Below, in pieces: positions 9,060 through 45,542 of a stretch of 64,000 nt of DNA. The number at the start of each line of letters is the position of its first letter. Position 1 is the stretch's first letter. Origin of the DNA: Stegostoma tigrinum (lineage: Eukaryota); contig NC_081396.1 of the NCBI RefSeq assembly GCF_030684315.1, positions 1,674,001 through 1,738,000 on the forward strand. Direction: 5' to 3'. The position numbers were made by a program, and so were the translations under genes. The notes beneath the pieces were generated by a model. It worked only from the letters and a program-made list of their open reading frames with translations. It did not search any database and was not told the origin of the DNA.

Positions 9060-10911
9060 TCACCTATGAAAGCAACCAATGATTGTGATAAAGGGATACA
9101 TCACTAGATATTTTAATTCCTCTCGGAACTTGGTCTGAGTCACTGCATAGATAAAAATATTAGTGCAGGAGCTGAGCAGCTGGAGCATGTTGGTAGTCTC
9201 TTGAAAAATGTATTGTGGGTCGTTGAAATCCAGGCCAGTAAAGTAGGCCTCACCCGTAATTTGCACATAGAAGAAATGCCCAACATAAGTGACCCACAGA
9301 AGGAGGAAGCTAAATGAGATGGCAAACAGCAAGACAATAGACTTCTTACGGTTCACCATCTCGGGATCTCCATGTTTCTGGTCACCCCGCAGCCTCTTAC
9401 GAGCTCTACTTGCCACTAAAATATGCCTTACTGTCAAGGCATTTAGCAACATAATGAAGAAAAATGGGAGAAAAGGTGTTAAGATGCGATCTAGCCACAG
9501 ATAGGTCTGCCAGAAGGGAGAGATATAGAAGGAGGCTATGATGTCGCAGAACCAGGGAACGTTTTCAATAATATACAAAGGCTGATAGGTGAAGAAGAAC
9601 GGCACATTCTTGAGAAAACTCAGGGCACAAACAACAACAATGATCTGCAAAGCTGTTTTCTCATTGCAGTATCTGGTCTTCAGTCTCTGGCAGCAAATAG
9701 CCACAAAACGGTCAATAGTGAAGGCTACAGTTAGCCAGACTGAGCCATCTCGAGTCGCATAAACCAGCACACTGCTGACTGTGCAACCAGGGGTCGTAGA
9801 TAAGACACTGTACCTGAAGTAGATGCCGCCTATCCGGTTGAGGATGACGGCAGTGATGATGACAAGGAAATCGGTCACTGCTATTGCCAAGAGGTAGTAG
9901 CTGATGCAAAGAGAAAGACCACAACGGCCTCTTGATAGGATTACAATTGCCACCGAATTGGCTGTAAGAGAGACAACAAGAGAAAATGTGTCCGTTAACA
10001 TCATCCTTGTTTCAAAATTAAGGCACATTGATAAAATGTTAAAAGAATAGGAATACACCACAATCCACCTGTGCTGCACGAAAAGCATTAAAATTTTTGC
10101 CATCATCGACAAAATAAAAAAGGGAAATTCGCCAAGAATTCATAGGCAACATGTTCAAAATCCAGGACAACTACCATTGAGAAAGACAAGAGGGGATGAT
10201 ATGTGGAAACAACGCCATTTTCAATTTCACCTCAAAGCCACTTACTCTCCCAGACGTGAAAATATATTTCTGTTTGTTTCAAAATCACTGATTCAAAATC
10301 GTGAATTCCCTTCCTAATCGCAATGTAGATTGACACACAGCACATGGACTTCAGTCGTTCAAGAAGGCAGCTCAATACCACCTTTTTAACGGAAACTATG
10401 TTTGGGCAATAAATGCTGGAACAGCCAGTGCTGAGTTTATCTAATGATCGAATAAAAGAAACAATGGGTTGGTTTTTGCGTTAAAGTTGGATCAAAGCAT
10501 TAAAATGCCCAGGTATAACTCGCAGAGTCACAACGTGAGATATGCAATCGACGCTGAGCTTTTCAGACACAGCCACATCCGGACATTAATTGATAGAGAG
10601 AATTGCAAAAGAAAAAAAATGAAACACATAATGGCATACCGCAAAAGTTTATATCTATAAATCCTACAAAAACTTTATTTAAGCTACAACATTGGTGGCT
10701 GGCTTTAAATTAACTTTGAAACTGCATTAAGATAATGCAAATGCAGATTAATGAAATAACTGATTATGTTCTGTGTTTCAAAGCTTCGAGTATGATCAAT
10801 CCAAGCTAAAGTATAGGAATCAATTTGGATAAATTACTTACCTGGGACACCAACAGCAGCGAGGACAGGATAGTAGATTGCATAGAAGGGGCCATTTGCT
10901 GGCCCATGCAT
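9060..10911 (-). CDS. Orphan class A GPCR, GPR139/GPR142-like, two exons (exon 1 10911-10842, exon 2 9961-9060), 323 aa
   Basis: Exon 1 MHGPANGPFYAIYYPVLAAVGVP ends CCAG|gtaagt. Exon 2 starts ttacag|CC (phase 1) ANSVAIVILSRGRCGLS. Seven hydrophobic segments; LAIAVTD (TM2), SVWLTVAFTIDRFVAIC (TM3), PWFC (ECL2), LLSSCTNIFIY..KFR (TM7/H8). 70+902 nt gives an uninterrupted frame. Confidence 0.9.
10140..10460 (+). mobile_element. L2-like LINE 3' fragment in the GPCR intron
   Basis: 'ttcaagaaggcagctca..gggcaataaatgctgg..cagccagtg..aataaaa' tail, also seen on SINE tails elsewhere in the window. Confidence 0.5.
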
Positions 10912-13861: not shown

Positions 13862-14325
13862 ATGGTTATCCTAATTCTCCTCACTCTGTGTGTCTGTTTA
13901 CCTCGTGAGTACCCATCAAGTAACCTAATATTGTGTTCATTTAATATAATGCTCCCTGAGTCCATGAAATAGCAGGCTCTGCCTCTGGTTTAGCCTTACC
14001 AGGTCGTTAGTATTTACAGACCATTCATGTCTTCCTGCTTGATTTGCAAAATCATTCTATCAGTTAATAGTATAGACCCCGGCAGCAGAGAACAGGGAAG
14101 AGTGTCAGTTTCTCACCATCAGCTGCATTTTCTAGGGTAACTTCTTTGCTCATCATCGAGAGGGAGATTTTCTTCAGACAAACACATCAAGAAGGGAATC
14201 GGAGAGAATTTCTGCAGGAGGGAGATTTGTTCTGAGGAAAAATGAAGCATAAAATATATTTTCATTGGAAATTCAGGACGTTAAAGTTGAAGATGCTGCC
14301 ACCTATTATCACCAAAGCTGGTTAA
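13862..14325 (+). pseudogene. NAR-TCR-type V pseudogene (orphan)
   Basis: Leader 13862-13904 MVILILLTLCVCLP+C|gtgagt. V relic ~14050-14325: LTISCIF..FRQT..ERISAGGRFVLRKNEA*NIFSLEIQDVKVEDAATYY-KA, an IgNAR/NAR-TCR-like FR3 with no conventional CDR2. Stops and frameshifts; no RSS found. Confidence 0.8.
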
Positions 14326-16559
14326 AGTTAAAAAGACAATGGGAAATTTACAGTGAATGAGAATGAAATAATTGCCTTGTGAAGTGAAAATATATCTTCT
14401 GCAGACCTATATTGTCGAAAGTTTTCAGTGATGTCCGGGCTCCAAATTAATTTAGTTGTATTTCCTCATACTGTTATGATTATATTATGTTTTGTTTCAA
14501 TTTCTTCAAATAAACTAACTTCAGCACATGTTGCGACATCTGCCTCAGATTTCAGAATGTAATGAACAAAATTTTGAGTTTGTGTGGTCTGTACATCTTG
14601 AAATCAGAATTATTGGTCTAAACGTCCCGACTAGCAAAGCAGGGCTGATGATCTGATGACATTTGCCCAACTGATTGTAAGACAGTTGTTTTTATATTAG
14701 GGCGACTGTGAATTGTGCCATTGTTTTGGAGGGCTGATACTTTGGATGGATGCAGGATGGTGGTGATGATCTAATTGGTAAGTAACTCCAAATCCCATTA
14801 ACAACTGACCAGGCAACTGTTGACTTTTTTAAAAAAAATATAGTCTGCATCTCTTCAGCTCCATTTAATCTAATCTAAAATGTTTTCTAAATACGATGTT
14901 AAATGCAATTTTCAATTTGAGAGCAGAATATGAAACTGGATTTTGGTCCGCATGAAATCTGATAGAAGAGAAGGGAAAACCCTTGAAAGTAGATTCAGTT
15001 GATCCCATTTGGATGGCCATTGATTAAAAGGCTAAAATGCAAATACACCGGCATTAGACTTTCTCATTTTTGTTCAATCTGTATTTTTTAATTAAACTCA
15101 GACTATCGAAATTTTAAATCCCACCTGGGTGTTAACTGCAGCATTCCTGTGAACACAGGAGTGTATTGAAGAAGTTGTCATTTGAAATAAAAGGTTTCTG
15201 ATTCTGAAATGTGAATGAAACACCAGAGAGGAACATGCAGTGATTGGTATGAGACCTGTAGCAGTAGAAATTCTGTAGAATGACACAGCAGGCTTCGTGG
15301 GCGACACATCCTTATTAAGTCCCGGTGGAGTTGCTTCATTGACTGAATGTACCTTTATTGTTTTTGGTGTTTCTTTCAGTTGTCTTAATGAAATTAATAA
15401 TTTTCCTTATTTTCCATTCTTTGATCGAGATGTAGAACTGCAGATATTCAGCAATGGCGAATTTTGCTTTTAGAGAAATATGTTAATGACAGTCTAGAAC
15501 ATGTAAAAGAGATTCAATGGATTGGAGTTTTTTTTTAAAATGTGAAAGTAAATGTTAAACTCCGATCGTCGTGAATTGTGCAAAGGTATTGAAATGAAGA
15601 CCTCTTCCGTTCTGAATTCACACGAATCTGCATCTTGAGATTATAAGTATTTACAATGCTGTGTGAAGAAATTGGGAAGGCAGGACATCAGTTGGAATAT
15701 TTGAACAGCCTGGGCCTATTTTCTCTCAAAATTCGAGCAGTACGAAGATGTTTCATAGAAATATTCTGCATCACGCTAAAATCTCAGTGGGATGCATATG
15801 GTTCCACGTGTGTGTCTGGAACAAAACCCAACTAAAATATGCAAAACTAGAAAACAAATGGAAATAGTCAAAGAGGTACATCTACAAAGAAATACACCAA
15901 AATGTGACGATGGCTGCCAGGTGGACTGGTTGGGAAAATTGTTTTAATGATGATGAGTTAGTTTCAAAATAGAAAGGAGAGAGAGGTATAACACGATTCA
16001 GATCTCAGGTATAAATATGCTAGTTAGTGTTCACGAGGGAGGAGGATATGTAAACTGCAAGAATGGACACAAGCAGTGGGGAAAAATATTCTGTTTCTGA
16101 TCTGCAGATTCTATAGGATGCAAACTTCAGAGAGCCTTTTGCCAGAAAATACGAGGAACAGTCAGTGCACATGGTGAGTTATTGAAATTTTCAGACATTC
16201 TGAAAATCAGCTTTCCAGTGACAGTAAGATCAACGTGAAAATTTCACTGACAGCTCACATTCACCAACGGAGCCACATTGGGTCCAATTTACATAAAATG
16301 TAAAAGTCAGAAGAACATGACAGATTTTATCGTTAAAATGAAATAATTTAGAGTTTGTCCTATAAAATGAAAGTTACTCAGTTGAAAGAAATGGACAAAT
16401 ATGTGGAAGTACTCTCTGAAGTTACCGTGTTTTTGAAATATAGCGCCATGTTGACATCAGTGCATAAAGTAACGTGAGAGGAAGAAGAGCCTGCAAAATA
16501 AAACATAAAGCGTCCTGGGTTTCACTTTAAAAAGGCGGGGGTTGGGGGAGTGCAAGATG

Positions 16560-17270
16560 TACGAAAACAAATAAGTTATGCCGAATATATAGGTTGGCGA
16601 GTTTCGAAACAACTGAAATCTGCAAGAAGTTCTGGATACTGTACCGTTTTATAAATGTGAAGGCATGTCAGAGAATGAAGAAAGAAGTATAAGAATGATT
16701 GCAGAGAACAAGGAGTTCAATGATGGAGTGAAAATGGGAACTCTCCAGCAGATGCTGGAGAGTCCAAGATAACAAAGTGTGGAGCTGGATGAACACTGCA
16801 GGCCAAGCAGCATCTCAGGAGCACAAAAGCTGACGTTTCGGGTCTAGACCCTCAATGATGGAGTCAGGTTAATGAGAATGGGACTATTTTACTCACAGAA
16901 GAGAACGTTGAGAAAAGACAGAATAGAGAGATTCAAAGTAATGAGGATTCTGGAAAGAAAAGGCAGATAGTACGCCTTTCCATTCGAAAAAAAAGAGTCA
17001 ACTGAAGTAGACAGATCAGAGTAATAAAGAAATGAGTCGAAGGCTATCTGGAGAGATAAATGTTGACAACGAGTGGATATGATCTGGAATATGCTTCCTG
17101 AGATTGCAGTTGAGGCAGATTACATTGAAACATACTAGAGGGAATTGGGTTATTATACAAGGATGAAGAATATGCAGGATTGCAGGGAGAATGTGCGGAA
17201 TAACAATCGTTGAATTCCTTCTTTCGAGGGGCAGCATACACACGTCAGGCCGAATGGCTTCCCTCTATGC
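16560..17270 (+). mobile_element. Degenerate CR1 3' fragment
   Basis: CR1-like 3' end ('gagggaattgggttatt..caggccgaatggcttccctctatgct'), interrupted by the 16730-16851 insertion. Confidence 0.55.
16730..16851 (-). mobile_element. Half copy of the Penelope-derived element, 13-bp TSD
   Basis: One arm of the 4860/7098 family. TSD TCAATGATGGAGT at 16717-16729 and 16852-16864. Confidence 0.8.
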
Positions 17271-17755: not shown

Positions 17756-20700
17756 TCTGAAGTTGACTTATACGTAGCAGAACGAGTAATTTAAATATTT
17801 ATCCGGATGAGCATTTCACCAAAAATATAGAAGCTGATATTTAATGAAAAAAGCATGGCAAGTGGCAGTAATTTGGCATTAGAATATACCCAACATAGGC
17901 ACAGATTCCTCAAAATTCCGTCAACTTTATTCAAATTTATCTTACTCTTGCTTGTTCTTCGGAAATAATTCTGTTTTTTTTTACAATTTAAGAAGTGTTC
18001 AGATTAATATTGAAATACCATAGTGTAAAAGGTTTTTGGCTAACGTGGTGCAAATAGGGTTAGAAAAAGTAGATGTTTGATGACTTGCGTGGAAGGGAAG
18101 GATTTTTTTAAAATTGATGTAAGAAGTTCTTTTACTCCATAGCAGAAGAGAAATAATTTTAGGTCAAATCTAATGATGGGTCCTTGGACATGAAATTACA
18201 TTACTTAGCCAAGTCGCCCACGATCAACAGCATGAGTGTTCCAATTGACCAGAAATTGAAATGAAAAATCACCATGGAAATACTAAGATTTCAAGACCAG
18301 GTTAGAAGCTACAAACTCTAGAGGGAGTATCCTACCTCTTGACTCCCCAAACACGTTGAGTTGTCTCCAATTCATAAATGTATGAGTATTCTTCACTTTG
18401 GTGGAAAGCTCACAGAGCACACTTCAAATTTAGACATCATCCAGAACAAAGCATATCGTTTAATTGATGTCACATTCAAAATCATTCTCGATGTCTTCCC
18501 ACGATGCACAGAAGCATTAGTATCTGAAGAATAGACACGGTGGATTCTAAATGTTAAAACATTTCCTCTCTACAGATCCTGCAAGGCCTGCTGAGTTTTT
18601 CCAGCAGTGCTTGTTTCCTTTCAGATGTCCACCGTCTACAAAGTGCACTTCAGAAACTCAACAGGTCTCATCCAACATCGCTTTCCAAGCCAAATATCAT
18701 TTCCAACCACCAGGAGAAGGCAGTAGATACATGGGAACTGTCAGTACTCCTCCAAAACACTTACCATCCTGAATCTGAAATATTTCGACCTTCCTTCATT
18801 TTTGCTGAGTGGAATTCTTGAAACTCTCTCCGTAAGAACTTTGGCAGAGCAACAACATTAAATTTATTGCTATGTTTCATCATCGTCTTCTCACTGACGG
18901 AATGATGATGGACAATAAATGTTAGTTTAGACAGTGACACGAATGCCCTGTGGACCAAGCCTCTCTCCCAGATATTACTGCCCAATATAACTATGTTTTA
19001 ATTTTACAGTGGCTGTGATTCTTCTCACTGCACTTGACGATATTATACCACAATCATGTCTCAGTAGGCACTCCCATGTGGGGAACTGATTGAGTTGTGT
19101 TCTTTTTTTATGCTACAGCAGGACATCTCTCCATTGTAGCTACACTAGGAACGTTGGCTTCATTCTCCAAACGTTCCCGTGCAATTTCTGCACACGTGTT
19201 TTGTTTGGAGAGACAAAGTGTTCAACATTTTTCTCCTCCTGTGGGAATGGCTGCATTGGGCTTATTGTATTCCAACTACCACGTTGACATACTCTGATAC
19301 ACAATTATCTAAAGGGAAATATCACTTATAAGGTAATGTACCAATAACGAGATAAATGAATTAAACTAATTCCTTGATGTATGGAATAATTCAGTACCTG
19401 ATTGAAATGATGAGAACAGACATTATTAGATTAGTAATTGGACCTCCAGTCAGCATTTGCTATCAGATGCTCCAATTGATAGATTACATAATGAATAAAT
19501 TTGGAAGAAAAACCTCAAAAATCGCTGCCAGAAGCCCATTTATAAAAATAATGAGGATACTCATTTGTCAGTGTTGCAAATGAAAGGTGCAAAACTGTGT
19601 ATTAATCTATTCATTGAGCTGTAACTGAGCTGCATGATGCAATTTAGCTTCTCCTCTGAACATCCTACTTAGAATGAATGAGGGCCACTTTGAATGTTTT
19701 GGCTCATTTAACAGCGTTTCAAGAAATTTTCAAGAAATCAATTCGTGTCTAAGGGACCATGCACGGCCAGTGACAGTATGCTTTGATGCCTTTAGCTACC
19801 CCATTGTCGCTACCTGCTGCCCCACGTAAGAAATATATCACACCTGAAGTTTGTATTTATTTGAAAATCTCCAGAAATCTTACCCATTCCCTCTGCAAAA
19901 CGAAATGCGACTTTTTAAAAATAAAAATTCAACCATCTCTAAATGGGAATGGACACAGACGAGGATATATAGTTGGTACTATTATAAACTTTCTATATCT
20001 TATCCTATGCTGTTATACAGCATTAGGTGAATCATAGTGTATTTCTTGCACTTACATTGATGAGGAACGCAAGATTATTTTCGGTGCACTCCGTTGCTTA
20101 ATTCTACAACGTCAATTTACGAGATTAGGATAATATGAATTGTAATGCATAACAATGCCTGAGCTGTCACATTTTATATTGTTTATTATTAGATATATTT
20201 TCTAAAGTGGAGTAACATAGAAACATGCTGTAGCAATTTACTAAAGTACACTTTCCTACACTGATTTATCTGTGTTAACATGGGCTGAGAGGATCATTCA
20301 CAAACAAGGGAAGCAAGATAAAACTGCCAATTGCACTACTACCGTTCTTATGAACGGCAGCAACACAGTGATCGTGTTGGATGCCATGTTTTACCAAATA
20401 GTGTGTAGCAATTGTCGAAATCTGTAATGCGACTTTGCAGTTATAGTGTCTTGAGTTGCCAATAGTCTTAAGAATTAATTATTTACAAGTTTGACTAAGG
20501 CGAATGATTAGATTTAGATTTGTCAGTAAATTGTCCCGTGATGTTACCTTCAGAGCATTGGGCATTTGTTTAGATTAATTGTATTATCCATTCATCCACA
20601 AGGATATGGCAGTTACTGTCCAGATCAGCATCTCCTTTTCGTTTCATTTGTGCACCTGAAAAGGAGGAATTGGTCTTATTTCTTGAGGATCTGCAATATG

Positions 20701-21465
20701 AATTATGGGGAAACTTTACTGGAGATTTTGCAAACAGCGTTGACACGGTATTTCACCAGAGACTATACGACGGGAATCGACGCAAAAAAATACAGAGATG
20801 TAGGAGCAAACAGGGAAGGTCACAATCAAAATTACTTGAAGACAAATAATGCCCTGAAGAAAGGCTTGAGCCTGAGCAATTGAGTGAGGCAATGAAAACT
20901 AAAGACATACCTCCCAATAGCCAGAGTGATTAATATCAGACAGAAACAAAGCAGCAGGGTTACAGTTACTTTGATTTTTGATGATAACAGGATGTGGGTT
21001 GCTGATCTATGTGATATTTAGCAAATTAAACAATAAGGTTATTAATGATGCAAAATTACCAACTCTGTACTGATTCAATACAGCAAGCATAGGCTTCCAA
21101 AAAGAATTCACCTTAGTAAAAGAGAGAGACATGTTTAAAATGGTTTAGTTATATAATACCTTGGATAGCTAGCCACTGGAATTGAGCCAGTGACTGGGAA
21201 GCAGCGTTGAGGAAACTGGCGCTGGCTGAAATGTACTTGATATTGGCAAATCTTTAATCCAGCATTAAATGTTGAACAATGACTAATGAATTTAGACAAT
21301 GACATTGCACATGATGGGATCAAGAAGGTTTTCGTTTCAGATTGGCTGAGGCAGATGTTGATGTGTGAAGTCAATTTTGTAACATCTGCTGGATAAAACT
21401 TCGCGTAAAGTAAAATATAATCGTTACAATGTCTGATTACCCATTCAATTTCCTGTTTCTTACAG

Positions 21466-22715
21466 CCAAATTGTTGGAAATTATGAAGCAATCCTGAGGA
21501 CGGTGTAGAGTCTCTAGGTGTGTAACCAACTACCTATTGACAATAGCTGTGTCCGATTTTTCTTTTTTCCAACAGCATTGGGTGTATCTTCAACCGAATC
21601 AGCTGCATCTTTTTTTTAATTATTGTGTACTATCCACCAGCTTCATATGCAGGCTGAGCACAATCATGATCTGTTGCAGGCCGGGGAGCTCCATTTGGCT
21701 GGCTGCAGCATTCACCATTGACCGTTTTGCGTGAATTTGATACCAAAACCAGAAGATCTGATCCTGCACCAAGAAAAAAAAATGCATCACTGGTCTTACA
21801 ATCTTCCTGAGTTGTGCCAGAAGCTTCCCTTTCTATCACAGCTAGAATCTAATTTATGTACTGAACGGTGCTCCCTGTTTGTATGTCATTAAATAACCCT
21901 TTGGCGAGGCAAGGCCTTCGTGGTATTACCATTAATCGTTAATAATATAGAGTCCTATATGTGTTGTGTGTACCAATTCAAATCCCGCCACTGCAAATGG
22001 TGAAATTTGAATCCGAATAAATATCTGCAATTAAGAATCTAATGACTCTCTTTTTTTCAGAAAAAAAACACGCCTCTGTTTCTCTAATTTTATTTCGGGA
22101 CGGAAACTGACATCCTCACCCAGTCTGGTCTAAATATGACTCCAGAGCACTGCAATGCGCTCGATTATGAACAATCCCCTGACTAGTTATGGATGGGTAA
22201 TAAATATTGCCTAGCCAGTGATGCCTTTATCCCATTAATGAAAAAAAAAAATCATTTCCACTATATTCTCCAGTCAGGCCTACGATTGGATGGAAAATAT
22301 ATTACACCACTTTCTCCCATTTGTCCTCATTGTTTCCTGAATTTCCTGGTTGAAAGACATTTATTGGAAGCCAGCAGAGGTAGCAAGAAAATTAAACCCC
22401 GTTCGTGTGTTAGAAACCCAGAGATGGAAAATCACAAGAGAACTATCATCCTGCTCTTCACATTCCAGTCAACTTCCTGCTGCTGTGGGTAACCAAAGTT
22501 GACATTTCTTCTACAGAGGGATTAAAGATGACACAGACTTCAACAACCTGGATTTCCAAAACGTACACTACATCCTGAAAGAGTAGACCAAAATATTTCA
22601 GCTACTCAGTTACTGCAATAACACACTCATCTATGCAGTAACATTGAACAGGTTCTGGAAGATGCTCAAGAAGGGTATAATGTGTTCTTTTGTCATATTC
22701 ACAGTAAAATACTGA
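21466..22715 (+). pseudogene. GPR139-like GPCR pseudogene (exon 2 equivalent)
   Basis: Same acceptor ttacag|CC. Translated pieces GRCRVSRCVTNYLLTIAVSDF, SSIWLAAAFTIDRFA, NPEMENHKRTIILLF, FQLLSYCNNTLIYAVTLNRF align with the intact gene. Stops, frameshifts and a SINE insertion. Confidence 0.85.
21905..22250 (+). mobile_element. tRNA-headed SINE with L2-like tail, inside the GPCR pseudogene
   Basis: B-box-like 'ttcaaatccc', tail 'gggtaataaatattgcctagccagtgatgcc', A-rich end. Related copies at ~48770-49010, 53970-54310 and 60315-60650. Confidence 0.65.
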
Positions 22716-29665: not shown

Positions 29666-29704
29666 CACTGTGGTGTAACCCAGTACTGCTCTCATACAAA
29701 AACT
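29666..29704 (+). other. 23-RSS
   Basis: CACTGTG + 23 nt + ACAAAAACT. Confidence 0.92.
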
Positions 29705-30760: not shown

Positions 30761-31950
30761 ATGAATCAGTGATTTTTTTTGTTTGTTTCTTGGACTACGT
30801 AGGATAGTTGCACAATTTAGATGATTATCAACGATCGTACTAAATTTGGAAAAAGATTTGAAAGTTCGATTGACCTCCCATGCTCACAGTTTTCATGTTT
30901 GTTTGAGATCAACTCTGACATCTTAACTACCTGAAATATAGGTGATCAGTTGCAAAAATACCGATATGAAATGTTTGAACTGGCATGGACTCTTTTTTCA
31001 TAGACACATGGAAACAAGTGGCGACTTCATAGAAATATTTCCAGTTACTAACTGACTCCATGAGCTGGATGTGGAGACATTTTCTTTCGAGCATGAGTCT
31101 AAAGTGAAATCACTCGCAGTGCAGAGCATAGGAGGAAGAGTATTTTTCTGGAAAGAAATGGAACTCATTGAGATGTGGAGTGAATGAAGGAGAAGCATGT
31201 TGAAGGAAGAAAGGAGTAGATACATAACCCTGAAGCCAATAGTTCACTGTAAATAGATTGGATCTAGTGGAATGGAAACATGTCTTTCCAAGTTAGAGAC
31301 CGCTAAGTATCCCAAATCCGAAAATTGGTTTTAATATGAAATTCAGTCAAATATACGGTCAGTTAACACAGGAGACAATTAGCCGATGGGTTCCAGGCAA
31401 CTAAATTTTTTCAGACATGCGGAACAGGCAGTTCCCAGCGAGTAACAGTAAAACCACAGGGGAAGCTGCACAATCGGGACAGATGTGAACCGTTAAGATA
31501 TGTTCCCACAATGATCACACCACAAGCAATGCAAAGTAAGTGTTGCAATAAAATTAAACTTCATATGAAAATTGAAATGAATATAAAATCAAAAAATGAC
31601 AAGGAAAGGGTCAAATAGAATGAAGGATAAGTAAGAGTTCCCGTGATGTCTAAAACTGACATAAAAGTTTTACAATGTATATTTGGTGTCTCTAACCCTA
31701 TAATTTCTATTTGATTTTCTCTATGGACAGAGATTGTTTACCCTCAGAAATGCGTTTTTTTCTGAAACTTTGGTGTCCCTTGTTGATGTTAGAAATCTTA
31801 TTTAGCTTTATCTTTCTACAAAGAAAGTAGACATATAAATTTCTAATCATAGAATCGGGCAACACGGGGGAGTTTTGTTGCACAAGTTCCCACTTCTGGA
31901 AGGCATTAGTTTGCTGCTTGCCCATAAATTCACATACTTTACGTGCTCAG

Positions 31951-32130
31951 AGATAATAGGAACTGCAGATGCTGGAGAATCCGACATAACAAGGGTGGAG
32001 TTGGATGAACACAGCAGGCCAAGCAGCATCTTAAGAGCAGGAAGGCGGCTGTTTCTGGCCTAGTCTTTTCTGATGAAACGTCAGGCCTGAAATGTCAACC
32101 TTTCTGCTCCTAAGCTGCCGCTTGGCTCCT
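31951..32130. mobile_element. Older copy of the Penelope-derived palindrome
   Basis: 'gataataggaactgcagatgctggagaatcc..ggatgaacacagcaggccaagcagcatc..ctgatgaa..gaaatgtc'. Confidence 0.7.
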
Positions 32131-32475: not shown

Positions 32476-32514
32476 AGTGTTTGTACAGATACGTCCATGC
32501 TCCGTATCACTGTG
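32476..32514 (-). other. 23-RSS of the supporting V-delta pseudogene
   Basis: Minus strand CACAGTG + 23 nt (atacggagcatggacgtatctgt) + ACAAACACT. Confidence 0.9.
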
Positions 32515-32820
32515 TGTACTGAACTCAACTCGGCGCACAGTAACTCACGGCAGAGTCAATCTGCTGTAGTTTATACCTCCTTAACTCGCTGATTTTTGCA
32601 ACAGGATCGATGGATGCAGACAACCTTACTTTGACATCACATTCATTATTCTCCTTTGCTGAAGTGTACTTCTGAAGCAGGTATTCAGAGTCTGATCTGG
32701 CGACTGACTGTACCTCTAAAGATCACACTGACAGAACCCTGAATATTCGCAGGTTAAGTTACATTTCAGTGACACTGGAGATCTTAAAAGCTGGACTCTG
32801 TGACACCTTGGAACAAGAAT
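32515..32820 (-). pseudogene. NAR-TCR supporting V-delta (STCR-delta V) pseudogene
   Basis: Acceptor cccacag|. DSCSKVSQSPAFK..LTCEYSGFCQ (extra CDR1 Cys)..SQSPDQT..YLLQKYTSAKENN..RLSASIDPVAKISEL..DSAVSYCA. No leader found upstream; frameshifts and stops. Confidence 0.85.
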
Positions 32821-33679: not shown

Positions 33680-34000
33680 AGATCACTGAGCAGAAGTCAA
33701 GAAGATCCGCCATCTATGTGCTGACTCTCTGAAGGAGTAAGTCACCGTTGTGGACTAACCAAAGCCTTGTACAGTTCCAAAGTAACCTCCCAACTTTTAT
33801 AAACTATTTCAAGATTAATTAAAACAAGTGTATTGTATGCTTTCTTAACCAAACTTTTAATTGATCTTTCTGCCCTTAGGGACCTGTAAACAAGCATCCC
33901 AAGATACCGATGTTCCTCTCAACTCCTTAGCGTCCTGCTATTCTTGCAGATTCCATTGTCTTGTTACTTCTTCTAAACTGCATCACCTTACGTTAAAAAC
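33680..34000 (-). mobile_element. Degenerate CR1 fragment
   Basis: 'ttgtacagttccaaagtaacctcccaactttt..gtattgtatgctttcttaacc' resembles the CR1 RT C-terminal region. Confidence 0.5.
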
Positions 34001-34688: not shown

Positions 34689-35034
34689 AACTACTGGTAG
34701 TTTAATCTGCTAGACATATGTTACAAAACATTTGGTTCTGCTTGTAATTATTGGGAGGATTTCTAACAATTAAGAACATTCAAATTTTCTCAGATTCTTT
34801 TGGTTCAAACTGTTATTTATGAGACTCTGAAATAGTAACAAATGGGCACAGGAAATCAGTTGATGAGCACTTCACGGAAAGGTGCAGAAATATCATAGAG
34901 CGGTAACAGGAATAAAAGGGAATTGAGGGAAAATGTACCAAGTACATAGAAAATAATGAATACATTTTACATTCCGGGATGGCGACCAGTATTTTTATTT
35001 TCAGTTCCACTGTGGTATTTATTCAGAACCCAAC

Positions 35035-35086
35035 CACTGTGGAATCCCGAAAATTAAACACAGTGTTTCAAATTAACAGTAAAATC
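35035..35086 (-). other. D segment (core 35042-35058) between two perfect heptamers
   Basis: + strand CACTGTG-gaatcccgaaaattaaa-CACAGTG + 12 nt + AGTAAAATC. The J-side nonamer is degenerate. Confidence 0.75.
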
Positions 35087-35405: not shown

Positions 35406-35913
35406 AGGTTCTGTTTTGCACAATGTATTGGCCCATCACTTTGGCTGCTGTAGTGTTAATATGCTTTACAGTAATACATGGTGGTGCCTTCAATTATTAG
35501 TCCCCACATCTGCAGTGAAACTGTCTTTTCTTTTTATTCTTCCTCACAACAAATCTCCCTCCACTGGAAATCTGTTCGCTATCTGTCAAAATCGAGACCT
35601 GTCTGAGGAGATATGCATCTTGCAAATAATGGCCCAGTTGTGACCATAATAAACACAGGAGATGATGACAGACTGACACACTGTCCTGGTCACCATTGTC
35701 GGTGTTTTTGTTACTCACTGAAATTAAACACAGGGAGTTTAATATACTGTCAGAGCAACAGCACAAAATCAAACAGTGTTAGCCCAGTGCCTATGTTCAC
35801 AAATGGCATGGTGGTGGGCAACATTTCATTGAATCAAAGCAATGTCCGTTTATTCTGTTGGTACTCACGGGGTATCCGGATGCCCAGGGTGAAAATAGCA
35901 AAAAAAATCCCAT
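35406..35913 (-). pseudogene. NAR-TCR V pseudogene (leader 35913-35869, V 35717-35444, degenerate RSS 35443-35406)
   Basis: Leader ATG..CCC|gtgagt, frameshifted in a T-run. V: VTKTPTMVTRTVCQSVIISCVY..EQISSGGRFVVRKNK..TVSLQMWGLIIEGTTMYYCKA. RSS CAAAGTG + 22 nt + ACAGAACCT. Confidence 0.82.
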
Positions 35914-36789: not shown

Positions 36790-39700
36790 TGTGACAATTC
36801 TATGAGTTTTTCTTAATGAAAGGTTTTAAGACAGGGGTGCTGAGGTGTCTTATGAAAATTCGTAAAGAGCTTTTGAGGCCTAATGTATTTTTTTTAAGTT
36901 GGAACATCAGAATTATCCCAAATGGCTGTTGTCAAACTCACATAGAATCAAGATGTTTAGTTTCGTAGTTTTACAGTAAACGTTGCTGCTGTGGTCTTGA
37001 TGCAGTTGAAAATACTTGTTTTTTTCCATCTCTCAGTGACCTTTAAAAGGTGGATGGTACCTTCCTGCCACTGAAGTTGCATTTGAGACTGTATTCTTTC
37101 TGCATTTGCATTTTGCCAAGGTTGTGTTCATAGGATATTGTTACTTTAGAAGTTAATTGTTAGTTGTTAATAATTTAATATTCTGTTCAGTTTTCCAATA
37201 GAGTTAAGTTATTCATTTTTTTCCTTTCCTTTGCTGTTCTGTAACCAGAGAAGATGAACAAAGAGTGTTTATCCACAAAACAAAAAGTTTGACCAAGCCA
37301 TTTGCATCTGGAATGGAGCGTCAGGCAATTGCCTTTTTTAAAAAAATGAAAAAGCCCAGGTCTAGTCTTTACTTAATTTATTTTAAAGGGCTCCAGTCTG
37401 GCCCAAAACAAGTTGGGTGTTCTTGTCAGGATCAAATCTTTAATTCCAGGTTGGTTTCAGAATTATTGGACGTAAAGGTAGCATGTGGCTATTATTTCAG
37501 AAGTTGAATGTGGTTGGTTTAAACTGAATATGTCTTTTATACTAATGGTTCTTTCAGTCACTAAGAGTTCTCTGGCCGTGGAAAAGGATGCTTGGGGTTT
37601 GTTGCAGAACGTAGGCAAAACCAAGCTTTCAGAAAATGTAATCAAACTGGACTTGGCGTTGCCTGTGTCTGTGACTTAAAATAGAAACAGCTGTGGCAAT
37701 CGATCAATATGTACAATTGCCCGGAATGCCATTGGAATCTTTGAAAGCGGAAAATATTCAGTTGAAACTGAAGCAGCTTGAACATGAATAGGAAAATTAT
37801 CAGTTTACATTACGATTAAAAGCAGATTGTAAAGATTGGGGACGAAGGTCCAGCAAGAATAAAAAGAGAAAGAGAGGGGAGAAAGAGAGAAACAGGGAGA
37901 TTTTGAACTTCAGAGTTCAGAATGGAGAACTCAATGCCGATTTCAAACAGTGAAGACAAATATGCAAAGTAAGACCAGTTGTGTAGACAATGATGGAACG
38001 CAAACCCATTGAAGCCAAAGCTCCAGTTGGGATTTGATCAGGTATGTACAAGCTCAGCGAGAAGGATTTAAAAGTGTTTTTCTTTTCACTTCGTTTGAAA
38101 AATTGGCTAAAAAATGAAATGGCCAGTGGCTCTGTGGTTAATGTTGATGCAAACAAAGTTGGCCAGTTTTGGTAGGTAGTGAGGAATTTGCATCACTATC
38201 GGTTGAAGTACCTGGAGAGTATTATGTGGTTAAAATGCCATTTTAGATACATATGAATAGCAGAAGCTTACAGACAATGTTTCAGGAATATAAGGAGTCA
38301 ACATGGTCGAAAGTGCATTGAATTTGAAAAGATCACACAAAGTTATTTTCATCGATGGATAAGGACTTTGAAAATCAATCAAACGTATGACACTCTTAGA
38401 TTATTGTAGAGGCATTCAAAATTCACTTTCTGAAGTGTTGCGGCCTCGTGTGGAAGAGAAGGGAGTTAACACTGCAAGTTTAGCAGCGGATATGGTGGTG
38501 TTCTTGACTTGCTCATAAATTGAATTTTGACTTCTGACATCAGTTACAAATGTGAAGGATAGAAACTGGAGGAAAGATAAATCATCAGGTGGTGAGGAAA
38601 ATCAGATCTTGTTGAAGATATCAATGATAGTTTATCACTATATAAATTGGAACCCCATGAGGAGAAATCATAAATAACAATGCTTCGGTGTTTGCTTTGA
38701 TAAGGACCACCTTAAGTCGCGTTTTTTTAGAAAAATAAATTTGAAGACGGCTGTGGGAAAACATAATAAGCCAGTGCATATTTTTGTAGGGATGAAAGCA
38801 AGAGAAGATAGAAAGCTACAAAATAATGTCGAGCCTGGGCAGTGGTTGCTTGAAAACGAATTGCCACATTTTAAAAAAAATAATAATTTAGTTGTGAGTT
38901 TAGTGTTTACTCTTTTATACCAAGAGAAGAAGGTAAAGCAAATGAAACTTTCTGATAAAAGGGAGCAAGTCAATTTTTGATGGTGAGTTGTAAGGGTGTA
39001 TGTAACTCAGAAAGAGTATTGACAAAAATGATGGTAAGTTGTGTAAAAAGATGTTGAGAAGAATGGTGTTCCATGATATAAAGTGAGGTTACAAGACTTG
39101 TGCATCTGAGTTGAAAGACCACGTTGAGAAAGCATAACTAAGACTATCCAGAAAATTGTGATAAAAGAATTCGATTTGAATGTTTTTGTGAGATTAGTAA
39201 AGAACCATTTTAGTTTAAAAAATTCAATCCATTTGAATTAGTTTATGAACATCAGGTGGGAGGACAACTGAAATGATTTAAGGGAAAAAATGGTTCATCA
39301 AACTTCAAAAATCACACATTGAGAGTGTGTGTTAAGTTTTATGGAGTGATTAGGTGGAGTAGGTGAGTTGGCTTGACAACATTTTAAAGTATAACAGCTT
39401 ATGATGAAAACAGAAGCAAAGCAGAAATCAGAAGATTCACAATTTTGGTCGTAGAGATGAAGTTTTAATGTTACTTCCAATGTTCATCAAATCTTGACAA
39501 CCAAGGCTTAGTGGTCCTTCTCAAATATAAAGGAAATTGAGTGAGGTGAACTTTTTTATGAGAACGCCATATGTAAAGAAATCTAACAGATTGTGTCATG
39601 TGAATATGTTCAAGAAGTATTTTGATGTGGAATGAAAGCAAAAGGAGAATGTATTAATGGTTACAACACAGAGTGAAAAACCAAGTTCCGATGTTTCTAA

Positions 39701-41218
39701 ATTGGACATGCCTCATGTTAAATTAGGCAACAAGGATTTTTTTTCAAAAACTGGGACGAATTGCTGAGTCACTTTTCATCCAAAAAGCTGAAAACCGTTA
39801 CTGCAGTCACATGGCAGTGTGTGAGGGAAAAAGTCTGGTATTGATAATTTAATTATGCATGACGGAGAGAAAGGGAATATGTTTGAATTAAACAACATCC
39901 TTATAGACATAACCCTACAAAGTTGGGAGAGGTCCAAAAAGATATTGAGATCATATTCAAAGACAACATAATCGAAGTCACTTGCAGGAAATGAAGATCA
40001 CTATAACAATGGTGCCAAAACCGTCTAGTATCCAATAATTTTGTGTAGACTACCGCACATTCAATGCAGTTACAAAATCTGATTGATATCCCATTCCAAG
40101 TTTGGAAGATAACAAAGTGTGAAACTGGATGAACACAGCAGGCCAAGCAGCATCTTAGGAGCACAAAGCTGACGTTTAGGGCCTAGACCCTTCATCAGAG
40201 TGGGGGATGGGGAGAGGATTCTGAAATAAACAGGGAGAGAGAGGGAGGCGGACCAAAGATGTTTTTTTTCACTTTTTTTGAGAAGATGGGGCAAGTAACT
40301 TGCAGTTCTAAGTTGGACTACCTCGGAGGACATTTATTATCGTGAACATTCAATTTGAAAATTGTTCACTTGGCAAAATGGGATGATATAATTACTGATG
40401 AGTTATTATGACTGTACTGGAGGAAGAGGGATACTTTCAAAAGCAGGAAAAATGTATTGAAGTGGACTGTTGCAGTGAATATTTCCATGTTTAGCGTCAA
40501 TGTAATATATGTCTATTGCAGTGTACAAATAGCATTGGACTAAAGGGGTTTAAAATAAAGTCTTTTTAAAGTTCTTATTCATAACCACTGCCTTACTTTC
40601 TCTTTGTATTTAAAGGTGTGACAATACGATGAGTTTAAGTTGTATATTTTGTCCTTTTTGTTGTTCAGGGAATGGTTTTAAGACAGGTGGTGTCTATTGA
40701 AAACACATAAAGTAAACATATTGTGAGACCTTTTTTTCTAATGTTTGAAGGACAGAAACAACCTGATGAATATGGTCAACCTCTCACAGAACAAGAGTTT
40801 TTTTTTAGTTTCTTCTTCTTTTTTATACTGCGGAGGCCTTGAGTTTTCTTGATGACTGGTTTAAACTTTGGATTCTCTTTGTGCTTCTAGACTTGCATTT
40901 GAGACAATCCATTTTCCAAATTTCCTTTTTCCAATTGTGTGATTATGCTAAATTGGAAAAAGTTATTAGTCATAGCTAATAATCTAAAGTTCTAGTAACT
41001 TTTCCAATTCAGTTAAGTTGCTCAAATTTCTCCTCCCTTTTGTTTTATTGCAACTAATGTGGTTAAATAAAGTGTCCATTGCTTTAAATCAAATAGTTTT
41101 ACAAATTAACTTGAATCTGGAATGAAACGCCAACAATTGCCCTTAAAATAAGAAAAAAGTGTCAGCGTATGGGCTCTCAACTAAATAAATTTTCAGGTGT
41201 CTGCTCTGGTCCATAGCA
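36790..41218 (+). mobile_element. Gypsy (Gmr1-like) LTR retrotransposon remnant
   Basis: LTRs TGTGACAA..CA at 36790-37410 and 40617-41218; PBS-like sequence at 37411. Gag relic (FEKLAK..MKWP..EAYRQCFR), integrase C-terminus (PFELVY.HQV.G.L; SGP) near 39.2-39.6 kb, then RT start (IKQHPYR, VPKP, CVDYR, YPIP) at 39.9-40.1 kb. Confidence 0.8.
40107..40262 (-). mobile_element. Penelope-family terminal fragment nested in the Gypsy RT
   Basis: Same arm as 4860, continuing into 'gggggatggggagaggattctgaaataa'. Confidence 0.75.
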
Positions 41219-42830
41219 ATATGACTGAGATAATATTACACTCTTTGCGGTCTCAAACACTCAATCAAGAAATTTGCTTTATTTTCACACAACAGTTAAA
41301 ATACATGTGAAATAAAACAAAGGAAAAGTAATTAGCTTAAGTGTGGCTCTGTCGAAATGTTTACCAAAATGATATATAGTGTACTATAAACTAAATGTTA
41401 CAAAATTGTAAGATCCCATAAACACAACCATGGCAAAGGCAGGTTCATTACAATATATTGCCTAACCTTCATTTCTTGGAGAAAGGACAAGCTGTAACAG
41501 AGGGAGGAAGCTTCCATACTCAGCTTCAAGACCCCAGGAAGTGCAGAAAGCTAAAACGAACAACCTTGGCTCTTTGGGAGATTTACCACATCCATTCAGG
41601 CTGCTTCTATTGTTCTAACTTAAATAAAAAGAATCCAATGCCCCAAAAAGCTGTTGGAGCAGATAACTCTGCATGTCTGCCTCAGTCTTTTACATTAAAG
41701 AAAAAAAAACAACAAAATACACCACTTAAAGTCACTGTATCATTAGACTTATACTAAGTGGACTGCAGTGGTTCGAGAAGCCATATTGCCAAGCTCCTCT
41801 TTAAGGCAACTGGAGATGGGCAATATTGCTTCACCTATCGCATGCTGCATTGTGTCAGTGGTCAGAACAAGCGGGAGAACAGTGCGAGAGATTTGGAATT
41901 TAAGTCTGAATATCCAGAAGGAGTTGTCATTGGAAAGCCAAAAGCATGTAAACGATAAGTAATCCCAGCCAAGTTGTCACCTGATGCTGCTGAAAACCTG
42001 TTTTTTTTTATTTGCCCTCATAAGCTGTAAACTCTTGAAATATGTTAAAGTATTCAGCTCATTCCTAGCAGATAATGTTGCATCATTAATACCATTGTAT
42101 CAGTACAGCCACATTGACAGTTGGAAAACTATGAGCAAATTAGGATTATTGCTGTCCTCGCTGGCATGTGTTAAAATGTTTATTCTTCATTTTCTTCTGT
42201 ACTCCAACGGTTTTAACTCACTTCCTAACAAAAATCCACTGCAATAGAGAAATTAAATGAAATTGCTCGTAAATTGAAGATCCAGAGTGCCATTTCTTCA
42301 TCCTGTATTGCTCTCTGTTGTGTGGTTTTCCTTATGTTGCATTTCAGCCTTTTGCTTCCTGCTGTATTCACAAGAGACTATTCAGTTTGCTCTACTTTCT
42401 GATGAAAGATAATTAATTGCTGATAGTCAATGTATGTTAACTAGCCATACAATAGTTATTTATAGCACACACACCTTTCATAACTTGCCTACAGTTTTTG
42501 ACAAGTTTGTAAATTGGAAAATTTCAAAAGTATTCAACACACCCAGTGTATGGGAACAAAATAATGCCAAGATGTCATTCTTGCCCTTAAACTCAGTCAG
42601 TCATTTTAGCACAATTAAAATGCAAGTTTTATAACATAAACTTTTTCTCATAAGTGAGGTTTCGTGAAACATATGTTTCCTGGTGTCAGGAAGCAATGTT
42701 AAATGTAGATAAGCAGATGGATGGAATAGGCAATAAAATTTAATGGTGAACAGGTAATTGTATTGATTTAATTGTAAACTGCAGTGAAGTTTACATTTGA
42801 ATTCTTTAAAAAGTCAGTTTTATGATAATA

Positions 42831-42840
42831 CACACACGAG

Positions 42841-42911
<71 letters not shown>
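42831..42911. repeat. (CA)n microsatellite
   Basis: About 30 near-perfect CA units. Confidence 0.97.
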
Positions 42912-42913
<2 letters not shown>

Positions 42914-43283
42914 AATATATACGTTGAAATTATACAGTAAAAATCATTAGCCAGTTAATATAACGATGTAGCAATGTAGATACTTGGACACTGGATTTCT
43001 GGTTTGCAGATTGTAGTAATCTTGGAACATAGTATACAGTTAGGAGAATGGTGAACAATTTTTAGGAGGGCATAGACGTTACCTCGAATTTTGCAAGTGT
43101 GTGGGCCTCAGTTGCTTCAATGCCAAATTAGAAATGCCTGCATTTTGTTTTGTTCAGATATCCAAACATTCACAATGTTCTTTTTTTCTGCTTTAACTCT
43201 GCAGACTGTCGCTATCAACATCGGATGATACCAAGGTTCACCAAATTAACAGAGTAAAGAAACAACACGAGTTTCTCTTCCCC

Positions 43284-45542
43284 TCATCCTTCAAAACAAC
43301 TGTAGAGGGCAGTGAAGGCGTACGTCAGAACTTTCTTCAGCTGTTCAAGAAACATATTCCGAGGTTCGCATGGATGAAGGCAATGTGGAGGGAACAGAAT
43401 AGCTGAAAAGACTCTTGGATTGTGTAATGCAGATCGCTGAAGTTCATTCTTCCAAAGTAGCTCTCAGCTTTAGGCTGCAAGTAAATGAAATATCTGATAA
43501 AAGAGCCCGATGGGAGTAGAAAGCTAGGAGTGATTACGAACAGCGAGACAATTGACCTCACGCACCTGCCCATTTCTGTCTCTTGTTGCTTCTTGGTGCT
43601 CCAGAACATCCTGTGGGCCCTGTGGCCACTAGGATATGTTTTGTCTTCAGGACTTTGAAGAGTACCTGTAATTGTGCACGACTCTACAATTACCTGTGGC
43701 AGTTTGTTCCATACATTCACCACCATTGCCATGAAAAAAGTTGCCCTTCAGGTCACTTTTAAGCCCTCCCTACTCGGCCCATATTAAATCGATGCCTTCT
43801 AGTTTTTGGCTGCAGAGACCTGGGACATATACCTCGATTATTTGTTCTCCCCGTGGTCTTTATGAGCGGGCACCGCCTTGAGAATCGGAACGAGAGAAAA
43901 GAGTTAAATATCTGGACGAGCCAATCTTAAGCCTATAGGGCTGCTCAAATACAGGCGTTGGTTTTGATGTTTCAAAATTAGGGTACCCTGTCCAAGATGA
44001 ACAAAGACTGGAATACAAATAGAAAGTTAATCCATTATACAGCTCAGGCACAGACAGATCCTTTGACCATTGATGTAGCTTCCGTGGTGCAGCACCTTGT
44101 CTCAGCCTTTTGAAGAAAATGTTCATAAAATGATCGACCCTGAAGGTACCTGTCAGATGACCGAGCCATTCCAGCTAATGTAAGATAGCACGACGCTGAG
44201 AATATAGACAGTAATTTTGGACAGGACACTTTCTCGGAAGTGGAGGTGGCTGATTTGGTTGACATGATTACAGTGATGGTGACAAGGAAATCCTTGGCTG
44301 TGGCCGCCATTTGACAACCTGCAATACACAGGGGAAAGCCTCACTGTCCTCGAGATAGAATTAGAATCTCCACAATGTTGACAGAGATAAATAAAGATAC
44401 GTTGCTAAGATCAGTCTAAACACCAGTCACTGCCCCTCGCAGCCTGCTGATTAAGCTTTCTTGATTTAACAATTTGCCATTTCCAGTATCCGTCTATTTC
44501 AAAACAACTGGTGAGTATAAGATGTCTAATGAGGTATCAAGTGCCTTTGAATGCAATCAGTCCTCATCACAATCTCCGCTTGCCAGTCAGTAAGTGAATC
44601 CCAGTGGTTAACTGTCATTTTCGGTTTACTGGAAACATTTGGTGCTCATGGACTTATTCATTTTATGTTCCATCCATCCATCAACGCCATTATCATTAAC
44701 TGATGTTGGATCCTCATCAGCAACGTGTCACGTTTTACAATATCATTCTTCAAATATTCCAAAACTCGAGAAACTCTTCACTGCTGCTCCTATAACATAG
44801 TTCAACTGCATTGAATGTCATGCTTCCTTTGATTCTGCCTCTTGTTTTTCCTTCAATTCAATATGTCCAACTGTATCAATTATATTCAGTATTGTGATAA
44901 GAGAAAGAAACGCATCCATGCCTTCTAATAATTGCTAACTAACTTCTTTGGGCTAATTGTTAGGAATTAGGAATTATTAGGAAACATATGAATAACAGCT
45001 TAAAAATCTTGCATCCCAACTGACTTTATTTTTAGACCCTCCAGTCATGGATTCCTGAGATCCCATTACCATTTGTGCTGTACATTGGGATATTCATGTT
45101 TTAAACTATCCTTGCTGAGCTGTCACCGTGAATTTACGGAGTTTCTGAATGAATGCTTAGATTACAAAATATCTCATAATGCAACACCACAAAATAAACC
45201 AGCTGCAGATTTTGAAATTACACCTCTGCAGAACTGGCATTTCACTGCACTGTCTTGAGCCTATTCATCCCACTATGCACTAAGATGCTAAATTGCATTT
45301 TACTGAACTGGATTGGAATTTGAAACAGAATGCCTGATATTATTACAGCCTAATGTTCATGCAAAGTCATTCATTGCAATTTATAGTTCAGCATCTAATA
45401 GACAATTGTTGCAAAATTGTGATGTATGAAAATTGCAATGACATCTTGCCTTTCATAGTAATGAAGTAGCAAGTAGCGCAAAGTACTTACAGTGAATAGG
45501 GATCAACGAGGTGTGTGCAGATAAATCATTTGTATGGTGCAT
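43284..45542 (-). pseudogene. GPR139-like GPCR pseudogene (exon 1 relic 45542-45491; exon 2 ~44370-43284)
   Basis: ILSRGQ*GFPLCI..DFLVTITVI..FRESVLS and RAHR..QETEMGRCVRSIVSLFVIT.SFLL..ESYFGRMNFSDLHYTIQE align with the intact gene. Exon 1 relic ATGCAC..ACAAATG..|gtaagta. A CR1 scrap is inserted at ~43670-43830. Confidence 0.85.

Follow-up and report, generated by a model that had tools for sequence, protein, structure and literature searches.

The locus raises the question of why G protein-coupled receptor (GPCR) genes lie among V segments in a shark antigen-receptor region, and whether they take part in T-cell diversification. The window, that is, the whole 64-kb stretch of zebra shark DNA analyzed here, holds ten V-type elements, three of them NAR-TCR V relics, that alternate with one intact GPCR gene and two decayed paralogues, placing non-immunoglobulin genes between V segments. 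The interleaving of GPCR genes with TCR V and NAR-TCR segments, claimed in a preliminary description, was borne out by gene anatomy and by profile and V-relic matches. The V context given there also stood, with an omitted caveat, namely that only one of the ten V-type elements is apparently intact while the other nine are defective; their orientations are mixed. The GPCRs are most likely passengers on an immune-gene chromosome and not part of T-cell diversification. The features of the window are as follows.

5585–5953, plus strand: decayed TCR V relic (weak), with a candidate leader and a broken V exon; no RSS found
9060–9961, minus strand: intact GPCR gene, exon 2, from the end of TM1 to the C-terminus
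10842–10911, minus strand: intact GPCR gene, exon 1, 23 codons plus one base, GTAAGT donor
13862–14795, plus strand: NAR-TCR V relic A, comprising a leader, a broken V that has the A-B-loop Cys, and a degenerate D region
19759–22715, plus strand: GPCR pseudogene A (exon 1, 19759–19825; exon 2, 21466–22715; repeat insert at about 21890–22245)
25537–28473, minus strand: LINE retroelement with a reverse-transcriptase frame (RVT_1, E 1.5e-30)
29201–29704, plus strand: sole apparently intact TCRα/δ-type V, with leader, GT/AG intron, open V exon and 23-RSS
32476–32820, minus strand: supporting TCRδ V of NAR-TCR unit C, broken, with CDR1 Cys and a well-kept 23-RSS
35014–35086, minus strand: D segment (35042–35058) of NAR-TCR unit C, with a 12-RSS on either side
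35451–35913, minus strand: NAR-TCR V relic C
43284–45582, minus strand: GPCR pseudogene B (exon 2, 44394–43284, secure; repeat insert at about 43625–43888)
47400–47750 (end approximate), minus strand: supporting TCRδ V of NAR-TCR unit B, broken
50030–50575, minus strand: NAR-TCR V relic B
53408–53687, plus strand: V relic, 5'-damaged, with 23-RSS
55889–56365, plus strand: TCRα/δ V whose exon is open and which has a 23-RSS, although its leader donor is GC (GCTATT)
62247–62723, plus strand: copy of the 55.9-kb V whose leader contains a stop

RSS matches were scored with the reversed window as the control, which also served for the profiles. The stricter score gave eight matches in the window vs none on the reversed window, and the looser score gave 20 vs five. 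In the apparently intact V, a TGA stands immediately 5' of the heptamer. The leftmost relic was recognized over 5711–5953 at 9.9 bits (control best, 1.3) and was matched by seven query proteins with a best E of 0.007. A 4-kb tandem duplicate in the window is 86% alike, and a match between 17.4 kb and 47.0 kb was rejected as a V for being SINE-like by eye. The motif scan of the window for J segments returned only two poor matches, both rejected, no C segment was found in it, and Rfam gave zero matches anywhere along its length. The best reading of the window is that it forms part of the dispersed TCRαδ/NAR-TCR V field of the zebra shark. Most of it is a V graveyard.

The three NAR-TCR units are about 57–60% alike and occur in both orientations, and all of their frames are broken. 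NAR V domains are described in the relevant passage of PMC1845163 as having a leader and an A-B-loop Cys and lacking the Trp of WYRK. An elephant-shark V of this kind could be aligned with relics A and C, both of which retain the A-B-loop Cys, and relic A (13862–14330) matches an elephant-shark protein at E 9e-11; leader and donor are retained in all three relics. Unit B carries a V homologous to the supporting V of unit C, the absence of a leader being judged by eye only; a supporting V was not found for unit A, nor a J motif between the NAR V and the supporting V in unit C. Units B and C have in common the V, the supporting V, and a 600-bp downstream block. Co-duplication of a GPCR and a NAR-TCR unit as one cassette was not borne out: a GPCR follows unit B only and not unit C, and the 600-bp block has no match to the region upstream of the intact GPCR.

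The intact gene proved to be as previously described, a two-exon GPCR at 9060–10911 with an open frame of 323 amino acids, a GT..AG phase-1 intron, and a single terminal stop. Exon 2 is 100% identical to zebra shark XP_048380813.1. A Pfam 7tm_1 match (E 4e-21) and a DRF at residues 107–109 place the protein in class A (rhodopsin-like), and the predicted structure has seven long helices (pLDDT 83). V relics on both sides of the gene had likewise been reported and were confirmed, the weak one at 5711–5953 on one side and the NAR-TCR V at 13862–14330 on the other. From the gene to the sole intact V downstream the distance is 18 kb. To the left of the gene, the window contains no RSS-bearing V.

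Both pseudogenes are well recognized by the family profile (pieces of up to 98 bits for A and 55 bits for B, against a best of 2.6 bits on the reversed window). For pseudogene A, exon 2 stood at 21466–22715 as first described, while its extent did not, the pseudogene being 1.7 kb longer through exon 1 at 19759. The region at 19565–19847, comprising this exon (ATG 19759, donor 19826) and its upstream sequence, matches the intact GPCR gene at E 4e-9. Across its aligned pieces the pseudogene has eight in-frame stops; it also shows frameshifts and an inserted repeat. In the family tree, which has long branches, is unrooted, and contains no true GPR139/142 row, it groups with epaulette shark P0112, apart from the intact gene, and a position as a recent copy or sister of the intact gene was rejected (p-AU 0.02). 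Pseudogene A is therefore taken as an old paralogue. Pseudogene B, first placed at 43284–45542, has a secure exon 2 with eight stops and an inserted repeat, and its exon 1 remains a candidate (ATG 45582 or 45542, donor 45490), lying outside the 14 best exon-1 profile matches and giving no nhmmer match. A sister position to the intact gene is allowed for pseudogene B by the same test (p-AU 0.83).

The receptors had been called GPR139-like. Among solved structures, GPR139/GPR142 do give the best sequence match (E 1e-12, 51 bits), and the NCBI name derives from them; by profile, GPR139 is not the closest bony-vertebrate relative. With profile A1, human GPR139 scored 76.6 bits vs 212.7 for a salamander gene and 186.7 for a coelacanth gene, and orthology to GPR139 was rejected on this ground. 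Four residues, F3.33, H5.43, W6.48, and N7.38, form the agonist site and are described in PMC5430874 as required for GPR139 activation. The shark receptor keeps W6.48 and N7.38, whereas F3.33 is Tyr and H5.43 is Asp, so that two of the four are identical, one is conservative, and one is changed, short of what an orthologue would show. A fold search ranked GPR139 only seventh without singling it out, with the neurotensin receptor as high or higher. As far as sequence can tell, "GPR139" is a loose label for the shark family. The nearest bony-vertebrate matches are coelacanth, silverside, anchovy, and salamander genes (32–33% identity in the two compared). These relatives are probably the GPR210 group, a lead drawn from the published range of that group, which the matches fit. 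According to a passage that names no shark genes, GPR210A/B are orphan genes related to GPR139/142 and occur in coelacanth, gar, and some fishes (Rinne et al., 2019, PMC6504862). Identity as an olfactory receptor was rejected, as the window protein gives only 7tm_1 at E up to 0.1; one skate paralogue of the 68 scanned has a sub-cutoff 7tm_4 score. Unlike GPR139, the shark receptors form a large array that is decaying. Sharks and rays have expanded the family greatly, with paralogue identities of 50–89% within the zebra shark and 56–73% within the whale shark. The earlier proposal of a GPCR family that has no kinship with olfactory receptors and turns over amid TCRαδ/NAR-TCR V segments is supported.

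A test for clustering of the family at antigen-receptor loci had also been proposed. Among 116 named members from the best 120 of 1654 matches, all those of the whale shark (10 of 10), basking shark (5 of 5), and white shark (3 of 3) lie on one contig each, as do 5 of 7 in the zebra shark, 7 of 11 in the brownbanded bamboo shark, and 9 of 14 in the horn shark. As only these best matches were listed, tandem duplication by itself would be expected to bring near paralogues together in this way. White shark members XP_041031385/387/402/519 are 27–161 accessions from UrIg2 XP_041031358, which is on chromosome 27, the published antigen-receptor complex. In the epaulette shark, members XP_0606773xx–0606780xx bracket UrIg2 XP_060677870, and two members are on a scaffold of 5,136,515 bp, while the TCRα-C scaffold carries V segments up to 5,118,634. 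From this accession adjacency and scaffold size, we infer that the white and epaulette shark members sit on the published TCRαδ/IgH chromosome, and co-location with TCRαδ/IgH thus looks conserved. The nearest family members probably cluster on the antigen-receptor chromosome of several sharks. Such clustering is supported by these proxies, one-contig concentration and UrIg2 adjacency, with exceptions in three species: whale shark XP_048475046 is far from its UrIg2 XP_048449493, catshark matches are on small scaffolds, and the closest orthologue in the brownbanded bamboo shark is on a 69.7 Mb contig while most paralogues are on a 76.2 Mb one. A protein search for TCR models returned mostly bony-vertebrate entries, and among them no contig with a family GPCR also carried a shark TCR model. 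In 68 gene models scanned, eight fuse family members to unrelated neighbors and none contains a V-set domain.

The family is probably a birth-and-death GPCR family carried as a passenger in a duplication-prone antigen-receptor region, its intact member being an ordinary receptor and its loss through V(D)J joining incidental. Gene decay, local duplications, unrelated neighbors elsewhere, mammalian precedents, and a pocket that is not extra variable support this explanation; long persistence inside the V field, which could reflect shared regulation, counts against it. The family may have settled on the antigen-receptor chromosome before the zebra, epaulette, and white sharks split, and would grow and decay through the unequal crossing-over, duplication, and inversion by which V segments are also multiplied and lost. 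The intact gene would act as an ordinary receptor under its own promoter. To judge from the relationship with GPR139 and the fair conservation of the pocket, its ligand is probably small, for example an amino acid, an amine, or a short peptide. Deletion or inversion of the GPCRs by V(D)J recombination in a T cell would be a by-product, which is also how trypsinogens in TRB and olfactory receptors at TRA are viewed.

A less probable explanation, to which we give a minor share of belief, is that the family is an unrecognized chemosensory repertoire of nose, taste, skin, or gut, functionally equivalent to the olfactory receptors that lie next to TRA in mammals, with its place in the V field incidental. 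The short N-terminus and compact gene, the many paralogues and pseudogenes, and the extracellular half of the helices, which is more variable than the intracellular half (p 1e-4), are consistent with it, as is the activation of GPR139 by Trp and Phe stated in PMC5430874. However, the predicted pocket is no more variable than other TM positions (1.12 vs 0.96 bits, p 0.33, in a set biased to near relatives), and the window protein lacks any olfactory-receptor Pfam match.

The preliminary description had gone further, suggesting that, through V(D)J recombination, T-cell clones could come to differ in their GPCR complement, or the genes could fall under TCR control. It is improbable that these are lymphocyte GPCRs in which deletion, inversion, or approach to a TCR enhancer yields clone-specific receptor sets. 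The interleaving is real, the conserved linkage to the antigen-receptor chromosome is probable, good RSSs survive on some broken V segments, and joining of the 29.2-kb V by deletion would retain the intact gene and shift it towards J-C, whose position is hypothetical. Against this, the window is mostly graveyard with mixed orientations, one intact V in ten and no J or C found; within it, no RSS-bearing V lies left of the intact gene, and unrelated genes also adjoin family members. Neither differing clonal sets nor TCR control is supported as a function. Lymphocyte expression likewise gained no support from single-cell data: among the rows listed as bamboo-shark cell-type markers, 11 contain "coupled receptor" but no family member, and "receptor 139" does not occur in the supplementary text covered, a weak test with listed markers all positive in at least 26% of cells. 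Passenger-gene deletion in mammalian loci is not known to have a function. It seems equally doubtful that the family is maintained throughout the whole TCRαδ/NAR-TCR/IgH complex because lymphocytes read it, RAG joining removing some members and setting others under the TCR enhancer, so that each clone has a V-linked set of chemical-sensing or homing receptors; if true, this would be a second, non-immunoglobulin layer of somatic diversity coupled to antigen-receptor choice, and expression that tracked V choice would newly link V(D)J recombination to non-immunoglobulin receptors.

Least probable is an orphan V graveyard unlinked to working D-J-C, with the GPCRs there by chance on a repeat-rich small chromosome. 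The defects of nine of ten V segments in mixed orientations and the scatter of white shark TCR V segments over 8.2–17.1 Mb between IgM clusters (PMC12227049, Table S1) fit it, but one V is intact with its RSS and the epaulette TCRα C scaffold has V segments in both orientations, probably with family members on the same scaffold. Except for the word chance, it is compatible with the passenger explanation.

As passengers, the shark genes represent a large shark-and-ray GPCR expansion hidden in databases as "probable GPR139", and raise the question of which tissue expresses the family. The chromosome on which it probably lies has now been put forward as the ancestral antigen-receptor complex, and the family would be a new synteny marker with which to locate and link TCRαδ/IgH scaffolds. 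No publication describing the expansion or its interleaving with V segments was found; "GPR139" is absent from the elephant-shark genome supplement, which is uninformative as "NAR-TCR" is absent too. In the elasmobranch antigen-receptor complex, a single chromosome has TCRαδ V and NAR-TCR V segments dispersed along it in either orientation (Flajnik et al., 2025, PMC12227049), and the window likewise shows both kinds in mixed orientations. The main text of that paper contains no "GPR", "GPCR", "G protein", or "zebra shark", and its Table S1 holds Ig-superfamily genes and psmb5 only.

Unrelated genes among V segments are known from mammals, with olfactory receptors at TRA/TRD, trypsinogens in TRB, and ADAM6 in IGH, according to the passages concerned in PMC2275272, PMC7696796, and PMC8945572. 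At mammalian TRA, only TRAV1 is described there as mixed with olfactory receptors, at the edge of the locus. In contrast, the shark window holds another gene family, whose members alternate with several V and NAR-TCR units and, unlike the edge-only mixing in mammals, appear to be spread along the V-bearing chromosome. The shark GPCRs would be an independent parallel to the olfactory receptors at mammalian TRA.

Three GPCR loci lie among ten V-type elements in the window, which confirms the preliminary description in that GPCR genes are interleaved with TCR V and NAR-TCR elements. The elements are as follows.

10911-10842, minus strand: exon 1 of the intact GPCR, followed by a GT..AG intron
9961-9060, minus strand: exon 2 of the intact GPCR, encoding 323 aa together with exon 1
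19759-22715, plus strand: GPCR pseudogene A, its exon 1 and upstream region recovered by DNA similarity (E 4e-9)
44394-43284, minus strand: secure exon 2 of GPCR pseudogene B, with a candidate exon 1
5.7 kb, plus strand: weak V relic
13.9 kb, plus strand: NAR-TCR V relic
29.2 kb: V with leader, splice sites, frame and 23-RSS intact
32.8 kb, minus strand: broken supporting Vδ
35042-35058: D segment with two 12-RSS
35.9 kb, minus strand: NAR-TCR V relic
47.7 kb, minus strand: broken supporting Vδ
50.6 kb, minus strand: NAR-TCR V relic
53.4 kb: damaged V
55.9 and 62.2 kb: V pair from duplication

Gene anatomy, a Pfam 7tm_1 match and a predicted seven-helix fold (pLDDT 83) agree on an intact two-exon receptor gene at 9060-10911, and over exon 2 it has 100% identity with zebra shark XP_048380813.1, located on a 16,414,262-bp sequence. 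The bamboo shark orthologue shares 85% identity with this receptor, whereas the DNA identity of pseudogenes A and B to the intact gene has decayed to about 60%, suggesting that the intact gene is maintained by selection. Both pseudogenes, likewise reported earlier, proved to be decayed paralogues with profile scores far exceeding the reversed-window control; each carries eight stops in the aligned pieces and one repeat insertion. Pseudogene A represents a different paralogue line from the intact gene (p-AU 0.02), and pseudogene B has no firm placement (p-AU 0.83). A weak GPCR-profile match at the right end (63773-63967; 6.2 bits against a control best of 2.6) may be a fourth relic or noise.

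Only the 29.2-kb V, one of the ten, is fully intact, and the intact GPCR lies upstream of it, with no RSS-bearing V to the left of the GPCR within the window. A TGA at 29663-29665 abuts the heptamer of this V and would require trimming at joining. A tandem 4-kb duplication (53619-57627 and 59966-63997, 86% identical) copied a V plus its RSS, and both copies are leader-defective, through a GC donor in one and a leader stop in the other. TCRα/δ Vs are the named relatives of the 62-kb V, and the NAR-TCR elements were identified by an elephant-shark protein match and by traits listed in PMC1845163. A motif search of the window found no J, and no C exon turned up there in the searches aimed at other elements. 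The 23-RSS at 32476-32514 is near-consensus despite the badly broken supporting V ahead of it.

Palindromic head-to-head repeats occur at 4858-5100 and 7102-7327, with partial copies at 16727-16872, 31947-32126 and 40106-40203, and their arms hold an inward-facing RSS-like motif (CACAGCA, a 22-bp spacer and ACAAAAGCT). Since the heptamers do not coincide with the ends of the elements, these motifs probably arose by chance within a common shark repeat, though they could be cryptic RAG targets. The window also contains a LINE at 25537-28473 with a 445-aa reverse-transcriptase frame, older LINE fragments (30144-30857, 33748-33992) and a further diverged repeat family whose copies are both direct and inverted (36790-37416, 40582-41774, 59278-59895).

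A protein search returned 1654 relatives of the intact GPCR among 2742 candidates, and 116 of the best 120 bear shark or ray names, the other four having no species name. A 45-sequence profile recovered 134 representatives at 50% clustering (E up to 1e-30); ten were looked up, comprising four bony-vertebrate proteins (salamander, coelacanth, silverside and anchovy), one from stingray and five without an informative name. The label "GPR139-like" holds for a position near GPR139/142 but not for orthology, because the family profile scores the salamander (213 bits) and coelacanth (187 bits) genes well above human GPR139 (77 bits), indicating a separate lineage; the coelacanth protein itself reaches only 70 bits against GPR139. 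Among bony vertebrates the closest relative found belongs to salamanders (proteins P0376, P0436 and P0439) and is likewise mis-named GPR139. An unrooted tree with long branches separates shark and ray genes from those of bony vertebrates. The 21 predicted pocket positions, which we take from class A numbering, show no excess of variation over 150 others in the helices (p 0.33). The family may correspond to the GPR210 group described in PMC6504862. Two of the four residues required for the GPR139 agonist response, as given in PMC5430874, are retained in the shark receptor. Family genes are already annotated in RefSeq, under names including GPR139, GPR142, GPR15-like, galanin, FMRFamide, sex-peptide, melatonin, CCR1 and vasopressin V2 receptor-like, and the family size is therefore hidden.

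Linkage beyond the window was read from two proxies rather than genome maps, namely accession adjacency and contig sharing of near paralogues, the latter counted from top matches and thus biased toward tandem copies. Near paralogues sit together on a single contig in whale shark (10/10), basking shark (5/5), white shark (3/3), Rhinoraja skate (3/3), zebra shark (5/7), cloudy catshark (3/4), brownbanded bamboo shark (7/11) and horn shark (9/14); they are dispersed in epaulette shark (17 matches, 10 contigs), sevengill shark (12, 8), smooth-hound (9, 7), whitespotted bamboo shark (8, 5) and small-spotted catshark (4, 4). PMC12227049 locates TCRαδ, NAR-TCR, IgH and UrIg2 on chromosome 27 of white shark and on chromosome 27 scaffolds of epaulette shark. 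In white shark, UrIg2 has the accession XP_041031358, and GPCRs XP_041031385, 387, 402 and 519 are on a 20.36-Mb contig; epaulette UrIg2 is XP_060677870, and the family accessions listed for that species all fall within XP_060677331-XP_060678062. The scaffold holding two of the epaulette members measures 5,136,515 bp, a length consistent with that of the TCRα-C scaffold, on which the last V listed in PMC12227049 ends at 5,118,634. However, a whale shark family accession is distant from whale shark UrIg2, and the brownbanded bamboo shark's nearest orthologue of the window gene is on a different contig. Among 68 family proteins that are long or partial, 8 are fused gene models (hemopexin, hexokinase, TRIM coiled-coil, sodium-channel, integrin, trypsin, Ig and uromodulin-like domains, two below the Pfam cut-off), with no V-set fusion among the 68. 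The only fusion traced to species is the trypsin-fused fragment P0394 (XP_055486826.1) of little skate; in mammals, trypsinogens are a marker of TRB, so the family may also lie close to TRB in skate. It follows that the family also resides elsewhere, the antigen-receptor chromosome probably being one of its main locations.

The preliminary interpretation is partly supported: a GPCR family turns over among V segments, both in the window changing through local duplication and inversion. It is very unlikely that V(D)J joining gives T-cell clones different GPCR sets or places the genes under TCR enhancer control. The intact GPCR would be lost only if Vs beyond the window, or the broken ones on the minus strand, were joined, and the J-C position would decide. 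In the bamboo shark cell-type marker sheet of PMC11372145, which uses RefSeq descriptions, none of the 11 "coupled receptor" rows listed belongs to the family; this is weakly negative, and clonally patchy expression would be missed because markers occur in at least a quarter of cells. A search covering mainly open-access literature found no description of an expanded GPR139-like family in sharks, nor of GPCRs lying between shark TCR segments, and GPCRs are absent from the main text of the 2025 antigen-receptor-complex paper (PMC12227049).

The GPCRs are more likely passengers carrying their own promoters. Passive loss of passenger genes at antigen-receptor loci is not known to have a function. 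The mammalian TRA, TRB and IGH loci, where olfactory receptors, trypsinogens and ADAM6, respectively, are passively lost according to PMC2275272, PMC7696796 and PMC8945572, offer a precedent for the shark GPCRs.
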